A stretch of DNA of 64,000 bases from Corallococcus sp. AB011P (GCF_003611605.1 NZ_RAVX01000011.1:4811-68810), one strand, 5' to 3'; shown: positions 1 through 10,348, numbered from the stretch's first letter. Made by a program: numbers and translations. The notes: generated by a model from the letters alone, not told the origin.

Positions 1-1089
1 GAAGTCGCGCACGCTCAACGTCGTCAGCTTCTCGCCGTTGAACTTGAACAACTGCGTGAAGAGCACCGTGCGGATGGGGATGTTCACGCCCACGCCCAGC
101 GTGTCCGTGCCGCTGATGACCTTGAGCAGGCCCTGCTGCGCCAGCTTCTCCACCAGCAGGCGGTACTTGGGCAGCAGGCCCGCGTGGTGCATGCCGATGC
201 CGTGGCGCAGGAAGCGCTGGAAGTCCTTGCCGTAGGGCGTGTCGAAGGGGGCGTCCAGCAGCGCCTGGCGGATCTCCTCCTTCTCCTCCTTCGTGTTGAA
301 GTCCACGGACATCAAATTCTGCGCCTGCTCGGCCGCGGCCCGCTGCGTGAAGTTCACCAGGTACACGGGGTACTTCCCGCGCGCGATGAGGTCCTGGATG
401 GTCTCGTGCAGCGGCACCTCGCGGAAGTCGAAGTCCAGCGGCACGGGGCGCTCGGAGCTGCGCACCGTGGCCACCTCGCGGCCGGTGAGCTTCTCCAGGC
501 TCTGCTCGATGACGTGCGTGTCGCCCAGCGTGGCGGACATCAGCAGGAACTGCGTCTTGGGCAGCGCCAGCAGCGGAATCTGCCAGGCCACCCCGCGCTC
601 CTTGTCGGAGTAGTAGTGGAACTCGTCCATCACCACCGCGTCCACGCGCGCGGAGGCGTCACGCAGCGCGAGGTTCGAAAGAATCTCCGCCGTGCAGCAG
701 AGGATGGGCGCCTCGCGGTTGATGGACGCGTCGCCCGTCAGCATGCCCACGTTCTCCGGGCCGAAGGCCTTGGAGAGCGCGAAGAACTTCTCGTTCACCA
801 GCGCCTTGATGGGGCACGTGTAGAACGACACCTTGCCCTCGGCCATGGCCTTGAAGTGGAGCGCCATGGCCACCAGCGACTTGCCGGAGCCCGTGGGCGT
901 CTTGAGGAACAGGTGCTTGTCGCTCAAGAGCTCCAGGATGGCCTCCTCCTGGGCGGAGTACAGGCTCAGGCCGTTCGTGGCCACGTAGCCCACGAAGCGG
1001 TTGAGGATCTCGTCGGCATCGAGAGGGGGCTCGCCGGGCTTCGGCAGCAGGGCGGCGAGCGGGGCGCGGGTGTCGGCGGAGGCACTCAT
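1..1089 (-). CDS. Superfamily-2 DEAD/DEAH-box helicase (Ski2/Hel308-like), N-terminal about 363 aa; 3' part lies beyond window start
   Basis: Reverse-strand translation from ATG at 1089 reads [19 protein letters not shown]... It contains Walker A TPTGSGKS, a DEFH motif (MDEFHYY), SAT (MSATLG) and a Ski2-like motif [38 protein letters not shown]. It is absent from the ORF track only because it is open at the window edge. Confidence 0.8.
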
Positions 1090-1141
1090 CGGCCCTGACT
1101 CTAGGGGTTGGCGCTGGGGCCACCGTGAAAAATCGCGCGGC

Positions 1142-1558
1142 TCAGCGGGAAACGTACAGTCCCACCGCGATGTGACCCTCCGTCAGGGGTCCGCCGGCCG
1201 CAGGGCGCTGCCAGCACACCCGCCCCGCCTGCTCCTGCGACAGGCAGGGCACGTCCGTCACCTCCAGCGAGGCTCCGGCCAGGCGGGCCCTGCGCACGGC
1301 GGCGCTCCGCGTCAGGCCCAGCAGCTCCGGCGCGGGGGGCGGTGTCACCTCGGGGCCCTGCTGGACGAAGAGGGCCCGCACCTCGCCGGGGCCTCCAGGG
1401 GTGAAGTGCATTCCCGTCCCGTCCGCGGTGACCCCGCCGTGCAGCTCCAGCTCCACCGGCCCGAGCACGATGGGGCCGGCGCCGAGCCGCGCCTGGACCC
1501 GCGCGAGCGACTCACGCAGGTCCACCAGCAGGGCCTCCAGGTCGATGGCGTCGCTCAT
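1142..1558 (-). CDS. Small protein with C-terminal PASTA-like domain (operon gene A), no signal peptide
   Basis: ORF 1142..1576. The ATG at 1558 ([11 protein letters not shown]...) is preferred because GGAGG lies 11 nt upstream. The C-terminus [59 protein letters not shown] fits the PASTA pattern. Confidence 0.6.
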
Positions 1559-1595
1559 CGCGCCAGGGGCCTCCACCGTGGCGTGGCCCCCCGGC

Positions 1596-2252
1596 TCACT
1601 TCAGCGTCCCGGGCGTCGTGGACTCCAGGACGGGCGAGCGGGTGGGGGGGAGCTTCCCGCCCCCGGTGGCTTGCACGGTGAGCACCAGCTCGGTGCCGCG
1701 CGGCAGCAGCGTCCCCGGCTCGGCCGAAGCCGCGGTGACCAAGGCTGCGTCCTTCGCGCCGTCAGGGAACCGGTGGGGCACGCCGATGGCGGACAGCAGC
1801 AGCCGCGCGTCGGCCACCGTCTTGCCCACCACCGCTGGCACCACCACCAGCGCCTCCGCCTGGGGCGAAGGCGGCACCGGCACCACCCGGAACTTCAGCC
1901 GCGACTGCGCCGTCAGGTTGTAGGCGAAGCGGTTGGTGTAGCTGGCGTCCATGGGCGCGCCGTACATCTTCAGCCGCGTCCGTCCATCCGTCCGCTCCTC
2001 CGCGGTGATGGACAGCGCCACGGCGATCTCCGCCTCGGCCTCGGGGATGTGGTACCAGGTCGGCCGGTAGCCGATGCGCTGCAGCTCCACCGCCAGGTCC
2101 TCGTCCGAGGCGTAGAGCTCGCGGATCCGTTCGATGGTCGCCGCGTCCAGCTCCCGCTGCGCCTCCGCCACGCCGCGGCCCACCGACGAGATCAACGCGC
2201 CCAGCGGCGCGCTCAGCGCCTCCAGTTGGGGGACGTCATTCGAATCCGCCAT
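1596..2252 (-). CDS. Paralog-family protein (N-helix AEAQxxLD, C motif FRVVPVPPSP) fused to C-terminal PASTA-like domain (gene B)
   Basis: ATG at 2252 with GGAGG 8 nt upstream, 3-nt gap after gene C stop. N-terminal LGALISSVGRGVAEAQRELD. RLKFRVVPVPPSP is followed by VVGKTVADARLLLSAIGVP...GTLLPRGTELVLTV (PASTA-like). Confidence 0.65.
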   Translation of the reverse strand: MADSNDVPQLEALSAPLGALISSVGRGVAEAQRELDAATIERIRELYASDEDLAVELQRIGYRPTWYHIPEAEAEIAVALSITAEERTDGRTRLKMYGAPMDASYTNRFAYNLTAQSRLKFRVVPVPPSPQAEALVVVPAVVGKTVADARLLLSAIGVPHRFPDGAKDAALVTAASAEPGTLLPRGTELVLTVQATGGGKLPPTRSPVLESTTPGTLK

Positions 2253-8425: not shown

Positions 8426-8428
8426 GGT

Positions 8429-8977
8429 CTACCCCAGGGGTGAAGCAACGGGAGGAAGTGAGACGGCGACTTCGGGACGAACGGTGTCCGGACGGACGAC
8501 CCAGTAGGCGTGACGGTCCTGCTCCAGCGTGATGCGGCGCGCGTCCACGTGCAGCCCGGACCGCGCCCAGCCCAGCACCCGCTCCGACAGCGGGAGCCGC
8601 CCGGCGCCGGCCAGCGCCACCGCGGACTCCAGCCGGGTGCGCGCCTCCGCCAGCCGGCCCAGCTTCGCCAGCGCCAGGCCGTGCCGCTCGTGGTGCGCGG
8701 CCAGGTCCAGGAGGGCCAGGTCGCTCGTGGGAGGCTGCTGCTGGTAGTGGGCCTCCACGCGCTGGCAGAAGGAGATGACGGCCTCGTGGGCCCCCGAGCG
8801 CTCCAGCGACTCGAGCACGCACCACGCATAGTGACGCTGGCAGACGTCGGAGCCGCCCTGGAGCGCGGCCAGCCGCAGCGCTTCCCGGTAGTGGCGCAGC
8901 GCCTCGTCATGCCGGCTGGCCAGCGCGAACACCTTGCCCTGCTCCGCCACGCGGAAGTGGAGCGCGAGGGAGCTCAC
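8429..8977 (-). CDS. TPR-like helical repeat protein (gene J)
   Basis: 182-aa ORF with a GTG start at 8977 forming a GTGA overlap with the gene K stop. It has Ala/Leu-rich repeats (ALRHYREALRLAALQGG...LAKLGRLAEARTRLESAVALAGAG) and a 3-nt gap to gene I. Confidence 0.5.
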   Translation of the reverse strand: MSSLALHFRVAEQGKVFALASRHDEALRHYREALRLAALQGGSDVCQRHYAWCVLESLERSGAHEAVISFCQRVEAHYQQQPPTSDLALLDLAAHHERHGLALAKLGRLAEARTRLESAVALAGAGRLPLSERVLGWARSGLHVDARRITLEQDRHAYWVVRPDTVRPEVAVSLPPVASPLG

Positions 8978-10056
8978 TGGGCCACCAGGGAGGCCCGCGT
9001 GCCCCGCGCTTTCAGCTCCGCGACGAGCCAGCGTGCGCGCGTGTCCCCCACCGCGGGCTGGAAGGTATGCGGCAGCCGGGAGAGCGCGGTGCGCGCCTCG
9101 TTGGCGGGCAGCCCCAGCACCGGGGCCAGCAGCTCCGCGGCCCCGGCGGGGTCCTTCGAGTCCTCCACCGTCAGGCGGAAGCTGCGGAAGTTGAGGAGCT
9201 GCACGGCCAGCTTCGCGCCTGCGGCCTCCAGGGGAGCGGTGCGCGCCACCACGTCCGCGCGCGACAGTCCCGTGTGCAGCACCACCGGCAGCCGCTTGAG
9301 CACCTTCGGCACCAGCGCCGGGGGCATGCCGGTCTCACGCACCAGCAGCTCCGGGAAGCCGGCGTCGGAGGGGGCCTCCAGGAGGCTGACGTCGAAGCGC
9401 TGGAAGGCGTGGTCCAACAACCGCACCCCACCCCGCGCTCCCAGCTCCCGCCACACGCGCTCCGCCTGCTCATGCGAGAGGTCCCGGGCCACCAGCGGAG
9501 GCTCACCCGGAGTCACGCCCTGCGCCTCCAGCGCCGAGCGGACCACCGCGAGGCTGACCGCTTCCGTGGCGAAGACGTCATAGCGGGCCGTGGGCGGATG
9601 GCTGGCGTCCACCTCCGCGCCCAGCGGGGCGAAGCGCTCCCGGAGCGCGTCCACCGTGGCCTGGGAGACGGAGCCGAGCACCGTGGGAGGCGTGGCGCAG
9701 AGCGCCGCGGCGGCGTCCGCCAGGGGACAGCCCAGGACGGCCGCCAGCTCCGTGGAAACCTCACGGAAGCGCCCGCCGTCACGCAGGTACAGGGCCACGT
9801 CGTAGGTCTGCCCGGCGGGGGGAGGAAGGGGCGCGTCATCCGGCTCCACGACCACGCGCAGGCCGGCGTTGCCCAGCACCTCCGACAGACTCCTGGCGAG
9901 CTCCTCGGGCAGCCCTCCCGCCAGCACCGCGGGGGCGCGGAACAGCCGCGCGGCGAGCTCCGCCGGGGGCAGATCGAAGTGGGGCACCAGGGCGCGGACG
10001 ATGCTCGCGGAGCCTCGGTGAAAGGAGAGAACAGTGACGCGCCGTGAACCGTTCAT
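8974..10056 (-). CDS. Protein of about four tandem ribosomal L7/L12 C-terminal-domain-like repeats (gene K), first gene of the operon
   Basis: ATG 10056. Repeats include ELAAVLGCPLADAAAALCATPPTVLGSVSQATVDALRERFAPLGAEV, LVRETGMPPALVPKVLKRLPVVLHTGLSRADVVARTAPLEAAGAKLAV and AAELLAPVLGLPANEARTALSRLPHTF...WLVAELKARGTRASLV. Confidence 0.55.
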   Translation of the reverse strand: MNGSRRVTVLSFHRGSASIVRALVPHFDLPPAELAARLFRAPAVLAGGLPEELARSLSEVLGNAGLRVVVEPDDAPLPPPAGQTYDVALYLRDGGRFREVSTELAAVLGCPLADAAAALCATPPTVLGSVSQATVDALRERFAPLGAEVDASHPPTARYDVFATEAVSLAVVRSALEAQGVTPGEPPLVARDLSHEQAERVWRELGARGGVRLLDHAFQRFDVSLLEAPSDAGFPELLVRETGMPPALVPKVLKRLPVVLHTGLSRADVVARTAPLEAAGAKLAVQLLNFRSFRLTVEDSKDPAGAAELLAPVLGLPANEARTALSRLPHTFQPAVGDTRARWLVAELKARGTRASLVAQ

Positions 10057-10348
10057 CTGGAAACACGAGACACCATCCGGTGTTTTACTGTCAACGATTC
10101 GCGAGGTGTGAGGCGTTTACCAATGTCTGAGAAATGCCCGCTCGCTCCTCGGGATCCAACCTCCTCCGTCATGACGCGGGCTGATACACGCCCGTGAAAC
10201 ATCCGGGTGGGCCTGGGCCGGCGGGACGCGCCTGACGCCCTGCCTGCCGGGTCTGTGCTCACAGGCACACTGGCAACGGCTGAAGCGCGCATGGCCATGG
10301 ACGGAGGGCCTCCCCATCCTGCCCCCGCGACATTCATGGGGGTTGGAC

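Follow-up and report, generated by a model that had tools for sequence, protein, structure and literature searches.

What is built by eleven co-directional bacterial genes which encode no enzyme, keep the same order in distant phyla and carry domains for binding the cell wall? The question is raised by an operon of Corallococcus sp. AB011P, lying in a 64-kb stretch of genomic DNA (GC content about 70%) that was analyzed as a whole and is called the window hereafter. The genes K-J-I-H-G-F-E-D-C-B-A run on its minus strand from position 10056 down to 1142. The operon is a horizontally spread structural module of 10–11 genes without enzyme, ATPase or membrane protein. We give about an even chance to the explanation that its products form a self-assembling, wall-targeted beta-barrel assembly without enzymes of its own, related to the defence pore protein Pepco. 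A more far-reaching claim, to which we give somewhat less than an even chance, is that of a new nanomachine class present in many phyla, an enzyme-free multi-ring beta-barrel pore or tube of eight Pepco-like paralogs which would assemble by itself, dock on peptidoglycan and breach an envelope, and which would share no part with phage tails or known secretion systems. The system as a whole appears to be undescribed, and its building block has one recently described distant relative. An earlier reading of the window, made from the sequence only, had proposed an undescribed multi-subunit assembly of homologous subunits; this proposal stands and is strengthened by the synteny given below.

Conservation of the gene order

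The search for relatives was done with protein F, which is identical (100%) to a deposited Corallococcus sp. AB011P protein. In a collection of 5.8 billion proteins it found 1726 relatives, all of them unnamed and without any Pfam domain save an occasional Big_2. A scan of GTDB, with one genome per species, gave 278 matching stretches or about 150–280 of 185,579 species, the count being given as a range because F and G share the search motifs. The open reading frames (ORFs) of 84 loci were called and labelled with iterated hidden Markov models (HMMs) of the window proteins. Synteny across Myxococcales and other phyla, which had been suggested earlier as a check on the operon, came out strikingly positive: the order K-J-I-H-G-F-E-D-C-B is kept in all 54 complete loci, from at least 8 phyla, and the public gene annotations show the same order. 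As complete loci of such distant phyla share one order, the arrangement is not due to chance. Position A is variable, being occupied in 12 of the 54 and in some lineages only.

The carriers belong to Myxococcota (Corallococcus, Archangium, Myxococcus), Gammaproteobacteria (Halomonas, Pleionea, Marinobacter, Saccharophagus, Psychromonas, Oceanobacter, Ca. Endoriftia), Alphaproteobacteria (Croceibacterium, Sandarakinorhabdus, Roseomonas), Bacteroidota (Fluviicola, Dokdonia, Flavobacterium, Aquimarina, Saprospiraceae, Chitinophagales), Verrucomicrobiota (Opitutales), Gemmatimonadota, Latescibacterota, Nitrospirota and Desulfuromonadota. When 2437 flank ORFs were clustered all against all, only genus-level families and generic two-component regulators came out, and a Pfam survey of 119 flank proteins found them heterogeneous and mostly housekeeping, with no flanks shared between genera. 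Since the internal order is kept while the flanks are heterogeneous, the module moves as a unit and behaves as a self-contained, horizontally spread one.

A reduced version of five genes was seen on the 303-kb plasmid pSna507_unt10 of Sphaerotilus sulfidivorans (NZ_CP035710.1; L085, 8643-11422). It consists of a 114-aa protein, two paralogs of the long type described below (172 and 178 aa), a 165-aa core-like protein which also matches family C, and a 278-aa coiled coil, and it has no TPR, L12-repeat, OmpA or PASTA genes. Judged by this set, the minimal unit may be the paralogs together with the coiled coil.

Layout of the operon in the window

The features of the window which concern the operon are as follows.

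8974..10056, minus strand: K, 360 aa, about 5 tandem repeats resembling the C-terminal domain of L7/L12; first gene of the operon
8429..8977, minus strand: J, 182 aa, TPR protein, with a 4-nt overlap with K (GTGA)
6329..8425, minus strand: I, 698 aa, long-type core into whose hairpin tip about 550 aa are inserted
5816..6319, minus strand: H, 167 aa, long-type core paralog, with a GGAGG site
5221..5793, minus strand: G, 190 aa, long-type core paralog, with F the most conserved subunit
4612..5202, minus strand: F, 196 aa, long-type core paralog, the reference member
3642..4592, minus strand: E, 316 aa, coiled-coil protein, charged, its C-terminus rich in Met and Asp
2984..3649, minus strand: D, 221 aa, core and C-terminal Ig-like domain
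2256..2987, minus strand: C, 243 aa, Ig-like domain at the N-terminus, then a minimal core (about residues 114-175) and PASTA at the C-terminus
1596..2252, minus strand: B, 218 aa, core and C-terminal PASTA
1142..1576 or 1142..1558, minus strand: A, 138-144 aa, minimal core of about 75 aa and PASTA
10057..10342, minus strand: upstream region of K, 286 nt between K and the divergent gene, presumed promoter region
1..1089, minus strand: N-terminus (363 aa) of a DEAD/DEAH (Ski2/Lhr-like) helicase, truncated by the window edge; a neighbour only

The calls for K, E, G, H, D, C and B match the deposited AB011P records exactly (within D7X30_25240-25280). The tight coupling of eleven minus-strand genes had been reported before, and each junction quoted then was re-measured with the same result. 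The spacings in nucleotides are K/J −4 (GTGA), J/I +3, I/H +9, H/G +22, G/F +18, F/E +19, E/D −8, D/C −4 (ATGA), C/B +3, B/A +19 and A/helicase +52. Gene A has two possible starts, GTG at 1576 (144 aa) and ATG at 1558 (138 aa, with GGAG in front); the latter is more likely, as the sister Corallococcus loci give 138 aa, and it would widen the B/A gap from 19 to 37 nt. Strong GGAGG sites had been reported before B, E and H; those of H and E are present, while the ribosome-binding site of B is the weaker GGAGGG inside GATGGAGGGCTGAACC.

A TTGACA is read directly about 35 nt upstream of the K start and a consensus scan of the upstream region of K found no full sigma-70 match; a promoter is presumed in this region. 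No terminator-like site was found on the coding strand within the operon or in the 52-nt gap between A and the helicase. The absence of a signal peptide or lipobox from the N-termini of all eleven products, noted from the sequence before, is borne out by a hydropathy scan, the only method applied to it, and no 19-residue window in any of them exceeds a Kyte-Doolittle value of 1.75. Pfam and NCBIfam gave no enzyme, ATPase or membrane domain in the operon products.

Eight paralogs built on one core

Six paralogs (B, D, F, G, H and I) had been counted by the sequence-only reading. The paralogy is real, and the number has to be raised to eight with the inclusion of A and C. By hhalign, with alignments of orthologs, I, H, G, F and B match one another at 97–100% probability (H–F 100%, H–G 99.9%, I–H 99.4%; B–F, B–G and B–H each 99.6%). 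D is connected to B at 95%, A to B, G and F at 96–99% (A–B 99%), and C to A at 99.2% over 121 columns, the middle region of C (about 114–175, between Ig and PASTA) matching the core of A at 97.3% (E 2e-11). As A and C hold a minimal version of the core, 8 of the 11 products (I, H, G, F, D, C, B and A) are core-bearing. F and G are 43% identical, and in a BLASTP comparison of F with I both ends of I match. When the core HMM was run against the whole window, matches were confined to the core-bearing ORFs of the operon; the core was not found in E, J or K, and tandem fusions of two cores, from which the packing of the subunits could have been read, were absent among the long homologs.

The core comes in size classes. 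I, H, G, F and B have a long form with an extra 35-residue insert and longer strands, A and C a minimal form of about 75 residues, and D is in between. Other domains are attached at two places: after a Pro-rich exit, where PASTA is found in B, A and C and Ig in D, and at the hairpin tip, where I carries OmpA. The Ig-like Big_1 matches of D (22.6 bits) and C (24.9 bits) are both below the cut-off. In other phyla, members of the F/G family of 255–264 aa have a C-terminal Big_2 Ig domain, and G orthologs reach at least 300 aa. F, G and H have no match to Pfam, NCBIfam, PHROG or PADLOC models, and the paralog profile has none among PDB sequences. F and G keep about 50% identity between phyla, with about 45 positions at least 90% invariant and a conserved LVPxPPP motif; such strong constraint is as expected for subunits with many interfaces.

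Probable relation of the core to Trypco2/Pepco

The Trypco1/2 families were defined by Kaur et al. 2020 (PMC7159879) and have been renamed Pepco and characterised in the preprint of Evans et al. 2025 (bioRxiv 10.1101/2025.11.14.688446). According to the preprint, Pepco is a cytoplasmic protein of 117 residues with an N-terminal amphipathic helix and a hairpin, which constitutively forms beta-barrels of 9-10 subunits resistant to heat and sodium dodecyl sulfate, charged in the lumen and hydrophobic outside. The pore becomes toxic once an adjacent protease cuts off its Pro- and charge-rich C-terminal tail (same preprint).

The first sign of a relation was a weak Pfam match of A to Trypco2, which recurred in 4 of 94 orthologs. 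For the comparison, SsPepco was taken from the supplement of Evans et al. 2025 together with its family and 150 diverse representatives, and hhalign was used. The Streptomyces-only Pepco alignment, which is of low diversity (effective number of sequences 2.3), gave 28% for D and 6% for A. Against diverse Trypco2 the full-length alignments gave 55% for D, 23% for A and 13% for B, the controls C, E, J and K staying at or below 4%. With the core only, A and D each reached 79% (D with E 1.6e-5). The combined core of A, B and D, compared with 138 diverse Trypco2 sequences, reached 92.5% with E 4.8e-7 over 50 columns, which comprise the N-terminal helix and strand 1, while the controls, one with the Pepco alignment reversed and 20 with its columns shuffled, stayed at or below 1.3%. 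Compared with F, G, H and I, this combined core reaches 97–99%. Searches in the opposite direction agree: a Pepco HMM run over 5552 locus ORFs had D orthologs as 15 of its 18 top matches, and in the window it matches A and D only, A being the sole ORF at E <0.01 with the diverse HMM.

The features of Pepco are also found in the operon, namely an N-terminal amphipathic helix, a two-faced beta-hairpin and a Pro/charge-rich tail, as seen from the AlphaFold2 model of F, the hydropathy of the strands and the LVPxPPP motif. The order is the same, from an N-terminal amphipathic helix with an 'A-Q' motif through an amphipathic hairpin, whose first strand is FxFxVxxxELxLxV-like, to the Pro- and charge-rich exit; with about 75 aa, the minimal cores of A and C are of Pepco size, and the proteins are made in the cytoplasm without export signals, as is Pepco. 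The core is certainly built on the same plan as Pepco and, judged by profile comparison, is probably a remote member of the Pepco/Trypco2 superfamily. The earlier reading could match the composition of the operon to no named system, and none was found here either, but the paralogs are not orphans.

The differences from Pepco are equally clear. Each operon has eight paralogs where Pepco is a single gene, the cores of the long type have the 35-aa insert and longer hairpins, and PASTA, Ig or OmpA domains are attached. The operon is found in diderm phyla, Pepco mainly in Actinobacteria and Cyanobacteria. For Pepco the barrels and their toxicity were assayed, whereas the operon proteins are known from sequence and single-chain models. 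Neither a trypsin- or caspase-like protease nor a sensor NTPase (STAND, vWA-MoxR) was found in the eleven products or among the recurrent flank families of 38 diverse loci; as this defining context of protease and sensor is absent, the operon is not a Pepco defence module.

It could still serve anti-phage defence by abortive infection, with K, as an L12 mimic, and/or J sensing infection and the Pepco-like paralogs killing the membrane, as in the Avs-protease-Pepco arrangement. The remote homology to a proven defence effector speaks for this, as do the rare and patchy spread across phyla, which is typical of accessory or defence genes, and one locus (L005) flanked by ATPase genes of the AAA_15/AAA_21 and AAA_16 families. 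The operon, however, has no protease, NTPase or nuclease and its flanks show no enrichment of defence islands. Ten structural genes, eight paralogs and domains of Ig and wall-binding type are unlike known defence systems, and the conservation of F and G is unusually high for defence effectors. We consider this explanation quite unlikely. A catalogued defence system as such was rejected, PADLOC giving 0 matches for the 10 products scanned (all except A) and the flanks being of heterogeneous housekeeping type. The locus just mentioned, from an alphaproteobacterial metagenome-assembled genome, has the AAA_15/AAA_21 ATPase upstream (1-2052) and an AAA_16/AAA_22 STAND-like gene downstream (15755-17338), and it is the only locus with the look of a defence island.

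Structure models and fold searches

The AlphaFold2 model of F, made with 77 sequences, has a predicted local distance difference test score (pLDDT) of 73. Its elements are a helix at the N-terminus (15-44), a pair of small hairpins, one very long hairpin (81-107/133-158), the LVPxPPP motif and a C-terminal helix. Both strands of the hairpin alternate hydrophobic and polar residues in every subfamily, like Pepco, and the odd/even hydropathy difference per strand is 1.5–3.7 units in F, G, H, B and D against 1.1–1.9 in Pepco.

The top Foldseek matches of the F model are non-significant and are nearly all barrel pores or rings with long hairpins (CDTb, iota Ib, lysenin, aerolysin, the PA pore, the phi29/P68 collar, FliF and the LP ring). 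No domain beyond the hairpin is common to the operon proteins and such beta-pore toxins and rings (aerolysin, lysenin, CDTb/iota Ib/anthrax PA, the phi29/P68 lower collar, the FliF beta-collar), which, unlike the operon products, are secreted or are parts of virions or flagella. The sole Foldseek match of F at E <0.001 is a viral protein of 178 aa, BFVD A0A516MP19 (E 1.7e-4, 185 columns, 16% identity, template modelling score about 0.3); going by the models, this protein may be a viral representative of the F fold.

Wall-binding domains and recruited hydrolases

Peptidoglycan-binding modules had been proposed as PASTA in A, B and C and an OmpA-like domain in I. For B, C and I this is supported above the Pfam cut-offs: PASTA (PF03793, cut-off 23.2 bits) scores 29.2 bits in B and 26.3 in C, and the OmpA-like domain of I (PF00691, cut-off 27.2 bits) scores 42.5 bits with E 8.6e-11. 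In A the PASTA match (19.1 bits, E 0.0013) remains below the cut-off, and A aligns to C across the PASTA region at 99%. PASTA was found in 36 of 94 orthologs, with a best E of 3.9e-18. The OmpA-like domain lies at about residues 290-400 of I, keeps the motifs GWAD, LSQKRA and NRRV, and its ortholog profile matches Pal structures at E 1.7e-20; the remainder of the insert of about 550 aa consists of repeats of unassigned fold.

The insert is absent in Opitutales, Oceanobacter and one further locus (L082), where I has 173-366 aa, and I of Pleionea has 560 aa without the OmpA domain. In these OmpA-less loci, except L082, the operon is immediately followed, on the same strand and after a gap of 16-53 nt, by a gene for a wall hydrolase which lacks a signal peptide, as follows.

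Four Opitutales/Opitutia loci: downstream Amidase_2 proteins, one or two copies
Oceanobacter: downstream LAS/M74 endopeptidase with PG_binding_1
Pleionea: downstream GH108 muramidase with PG_binding_3, followed by a holin of the gene transfer agent (GTA) type

Thus 46 of the 54 complete loci have the OmpA domain and no hydrolase, 7 (from 6 genomes, with three unrelated enzyme families) have a hydrolase and no OmpA domain, 1 (L082) has neither and 0 have both. The recruitment of three unrelated wall enzymes to this one position argues that the work of the module includes an action on peptidoglycan. The core was not found inside these hydrolases. In five genomes besides Pleionea the signal-less hydrolases come without a holin. 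The pair of GH108 and GTA_holin_3TM, in Pleionea sediminis (L003, 15171-16111), follows the operon on the same strand and includes the only holin beside any locus.

Flagella and type III, type IV and type VI secretion systems usually have OmpA-like anchors and dedicated wall hydrolases as accessories. The products might therefore make a permanent envelope-spanning or periplasmic scaffold or conduit, anchored to peptidoglycan like MotB, TssL and Pal, with the hydrolases making room for it. Both accessories occur at these loci, and regulators of two-component and cyclic di-GMP type are frequent neighbours. Against a conduit stand the lack of any membrane protein, signal peptide, ATPase or other energy source and recognisable cargo, and there is no known route of the subunits to the periplasm; we rate it as distinctly improbable. 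A known secretion or motility machine (type I to type XI secretion systems, flagellum, gliding) was rejected outright, as no hydrophobic segment and no ATPase or motor family is present, and the matches to MotB, TssL and PorE of the OmpA family cover the OmpA domain only, far below their cut-offs.

A further explanation is a purely cytoplasmic polymer or shell, of gas-vesicle-like, R-body-like or cytoskeletal type, in which the folds of wall-binding type would be reused for other ligands. Export signals are absent from all products, the helix-hairpin-helix order of F resembles the topology of GvpA by our own comparison, and several small paralogs are typical of such structures. But the OmpA domain keeps its canonical peptidoglycan-binding motifs, genuine wall hydrolases were recruited to the operon, and there are neither Pfam matches to gas-vesicle, RebB, bactofilin or encapsulin families nor partners of GvpN or GvpF type, which makes this explanation very improbable indeed. 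Gas vesicle, R-body, encapsulin and bactofilin had also been tried as direct identifications and were rejected, with no such Pfam match at E <=0.1.

Comparison with phage tails and release systems

It is typical of virion parts that signal-less proteins carry Ig-like domains and wall hydrolases, and body paralogs followed by a long helical protein and then by decorated paralogs resemble the order of siphophage tail modules. The operon could thus encode an extracellular particle, phage-tail-like or tailocin-like but of non-phage ancestry, which is released by lysis and attacks other bacteria; the paralogs would be its tube, E a ruler like a tape measure, D/C/B/A a wall-binding tip, and the hydrolases lysins carried by the particle. 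The GH108 endolysin and GTA-type holin of Pleionea fit such a particle, and so does the weak Foldseek likeness to podophage lower-collar proteins and to the viral A0A516MP19. On the opposite side, tblastn against 50,697 phage genome records gave no match and a scan of 2.9 million viral contigs of IMG/VR gave no confirmed relative. In PHROGs 0 of 77 F-family members match, and 94 other members gave only single matches, which are to families of Ig-domain and major tail proteins. Pfam, NCBIfam and PHROGs gave no tube, sheath, baseplate, tape-measure, terminator, capsid or terminase family, a lysis cassette accompanies only 1 of the 54 loci, and the flanks are without prophage or integrase signal. 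A tailocin-like particle is therefore unlikely in our view, and a true prophage or tailocin identity was rejected for want of relatives among phages, viral contigs and PHROGs.

Holin-endolysin cassettes, type 10 secretion and F-type pyocin clusters share with the operon signal-less wall-active proteins which need a membrane lesion to reach the wall. They differ from it in that holins are small membrane proteins, of which the operon has none; proteins of tail families are also missing and the hydrolase is rare.

The earlier statement that the operon fits none of the named secretion, motility, phage-tail, encapsulin or defence systems has held up throughout, searches of Pfam, NCBIfam, PHROGs, PADLOC, PDB sequences and folds and the literature being empty in this respect. 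Product annotations read hypothetical, PASTA domain-containing or OmpA family only, and no published description of the operon was found in the searchable full-text literature, a scope which leaves subscription-only papers aside.

The non-core subunits K, J and E

These three had been described from the sequence as L7/L12-type repeats (K), a TPR protein (J) and a Met-rich coiled coil (E), and the descriptions agree with our results. K matches Pfam Ribosomal_L12 at 29.6 bits, and its profile from 34 orthologs finds structures of the bL12 C-terminal domain in PDB at E 4e-6, positions 7-75 and 227-292 both matching; it is present in 54 of 54 complete loci. J, which is at position 2 in all complete loci, has several TPR matches in Pfam, all under their cut-offs, and its profile (30 orthologs) matches TPR structures generically.

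In type III secretion systems the pore-forming translocators, which are made in the cytoplasm, come with class II TPR chaperones, and a small TPR protein of about 180 aa beside putative pore subunits is analogous to such pairs. A specific relative of these chaperones was rejected for J since its matches are generic TPR only, and the export apparatus of type III secretion is absent.

E has no family match in Pfam, NCBIfam or PHROGs. It is a charged coiled coil which evolves fast (221-535 aa among orthologs), and in which conservation is limited to a Trp at the N-terminus and a helix at about 50-70, while its place between F and D is constant. In the window a 27-bp tandem repeat lies inside E at 3706-3786 (2.9 copies, 75% matches) and encodes the Met/Asp-rich units MDMESMEQR / MDMEMERAG / MGMDDMDAR; this repeat part is not conserved in other phyla.

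Proposed assembly

In the beta-barrel assembly which we favour, the hairpins would join neighbouring cores into beta-barrel rings, either hetero-oligomeric or stacked. The body would be formed by I/H/G/F, which are highly conserved and barely decorated, and D/C/B/A would supply subunits with outward-pointing C-terminal Ig-like and PASTA domains, which together with the OmpA-like insert of I would fasten the assembly to peptidoglycan. J, and perhaps K, may keep aggregation-prone subunits soluble or inactive in the cytoplasm. E, being length-variable, helical and placed between two groups of paralogs, may act as scaffold, plug or ruler. The finished barrel would perforate the membrane beside the wall, and the target could be the envelope of the producer (regulated release, lysis or abortive infection), that of a neighbour after release, as with a bacteriocin-like particle, or the barrel could be a standing conduit.

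Several points weigh against this explanation. The largest is that the proposal gives no route to the wall for binding domains which are made in the cytoplasm. In 46 of the 54 loci the OmpA domain is present without a hydrolase, and a holin occurs in one locus only. The hydrolases were sought by homology to cases already found, in few lineages, so other types beside OmpA-bearing loci could escape. The single-chain model of F has an overall pLDDT of only 73, and its long hairpin, confident near the base, falls to <50 in the distal part. The model of I, from 13 close homologs, has a pLDDT of 48.7 and is confident for the OmpA part only, and the 550-aa insert at its hairpin tip is hard to square with spontaneous membrane insertion. 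The relation to Pepco is remote and covers about 50 columns only. F, G and H alone give <2% probability against Trypco2, being linked only via A, B and D, and the Pfam model Trypco2 (PF19631, cut-off 24.2) is not reached even by A (18.6 bits, E 0.0022). Among 94 orthologs, 4 have this model at E <0.05 (best 5.5e-4), which are weak matches of A-type members. The protease and sensor partners of Pepco are absent.

Value of the findings

Ten genes hold one order from Myxococcota to Bacteroidota, Verrucomicrobiota and Gemmatimonadota, yet every product is un-named, and to our knowledge few conserved bacterial gene clusters of this size are still unassigned. The link to Pepco yields a testable hypothesis of heteromeric beta-barrel rings binding peptidoglycan. 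If this is true, the operon would be a new architecture for crossing or breaking the Gram-negative envelope and would reveal how wall-binding proteins without export signals reach the wall. Pepco would then be a reduced single-gene relative of a much larger and older structural family, or the relation would run the other way. Barrels which assemble by themselves, are very stable and carry modular domains on their surface would also be attractive as nanopores or scaffolds.

Neighbouring genes

The helicase had been taken for a part of the system, and this does not hold. Its identity is supported by Pfam DEAD (E 8.4e-21, in 1-1089), but it stands beside the operon in 3 of 84 loci, all of Corallococcus, and is absent there in Archangium and Myxococcus; being found with the operon in these three loci only, it is a neighbour and not a component. 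In Corallococcus it may be transcribed together with the operon.

Divergent from the operon on the plus strand are a gene for a DUF4142 protein with a lipoprotein-like N-terminus (10343-10978) and one for a Ser/Thr protein kinase with a Pro-rich linker (11127-12782), neither of which is conserved beside the operon elsewhere. Two-component and cyclic di-GMP regulators are common among the neighbours, for example a hybrid kinase upstream in Pleionea. In all Fluviicola loci (L058, L062, L072, L077 and L078) a membrane histidine kinase of 341 aa and a 241-aa protein lie about 0.3–2 kb upstream of K on the same strand; they look like a LytS/LytTR pair (LytTR and Response_reg appear in the flank survey) which may regulate the operon.

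One more observation comes from a Cytophagales metagenome contig (L004, 18350-20504), where the operon is followed, about 3 kb downstream and on the other strand, by two OrfX-like genes (PF06597). OrfX is a protein family associated with botulinum toxin clusters.

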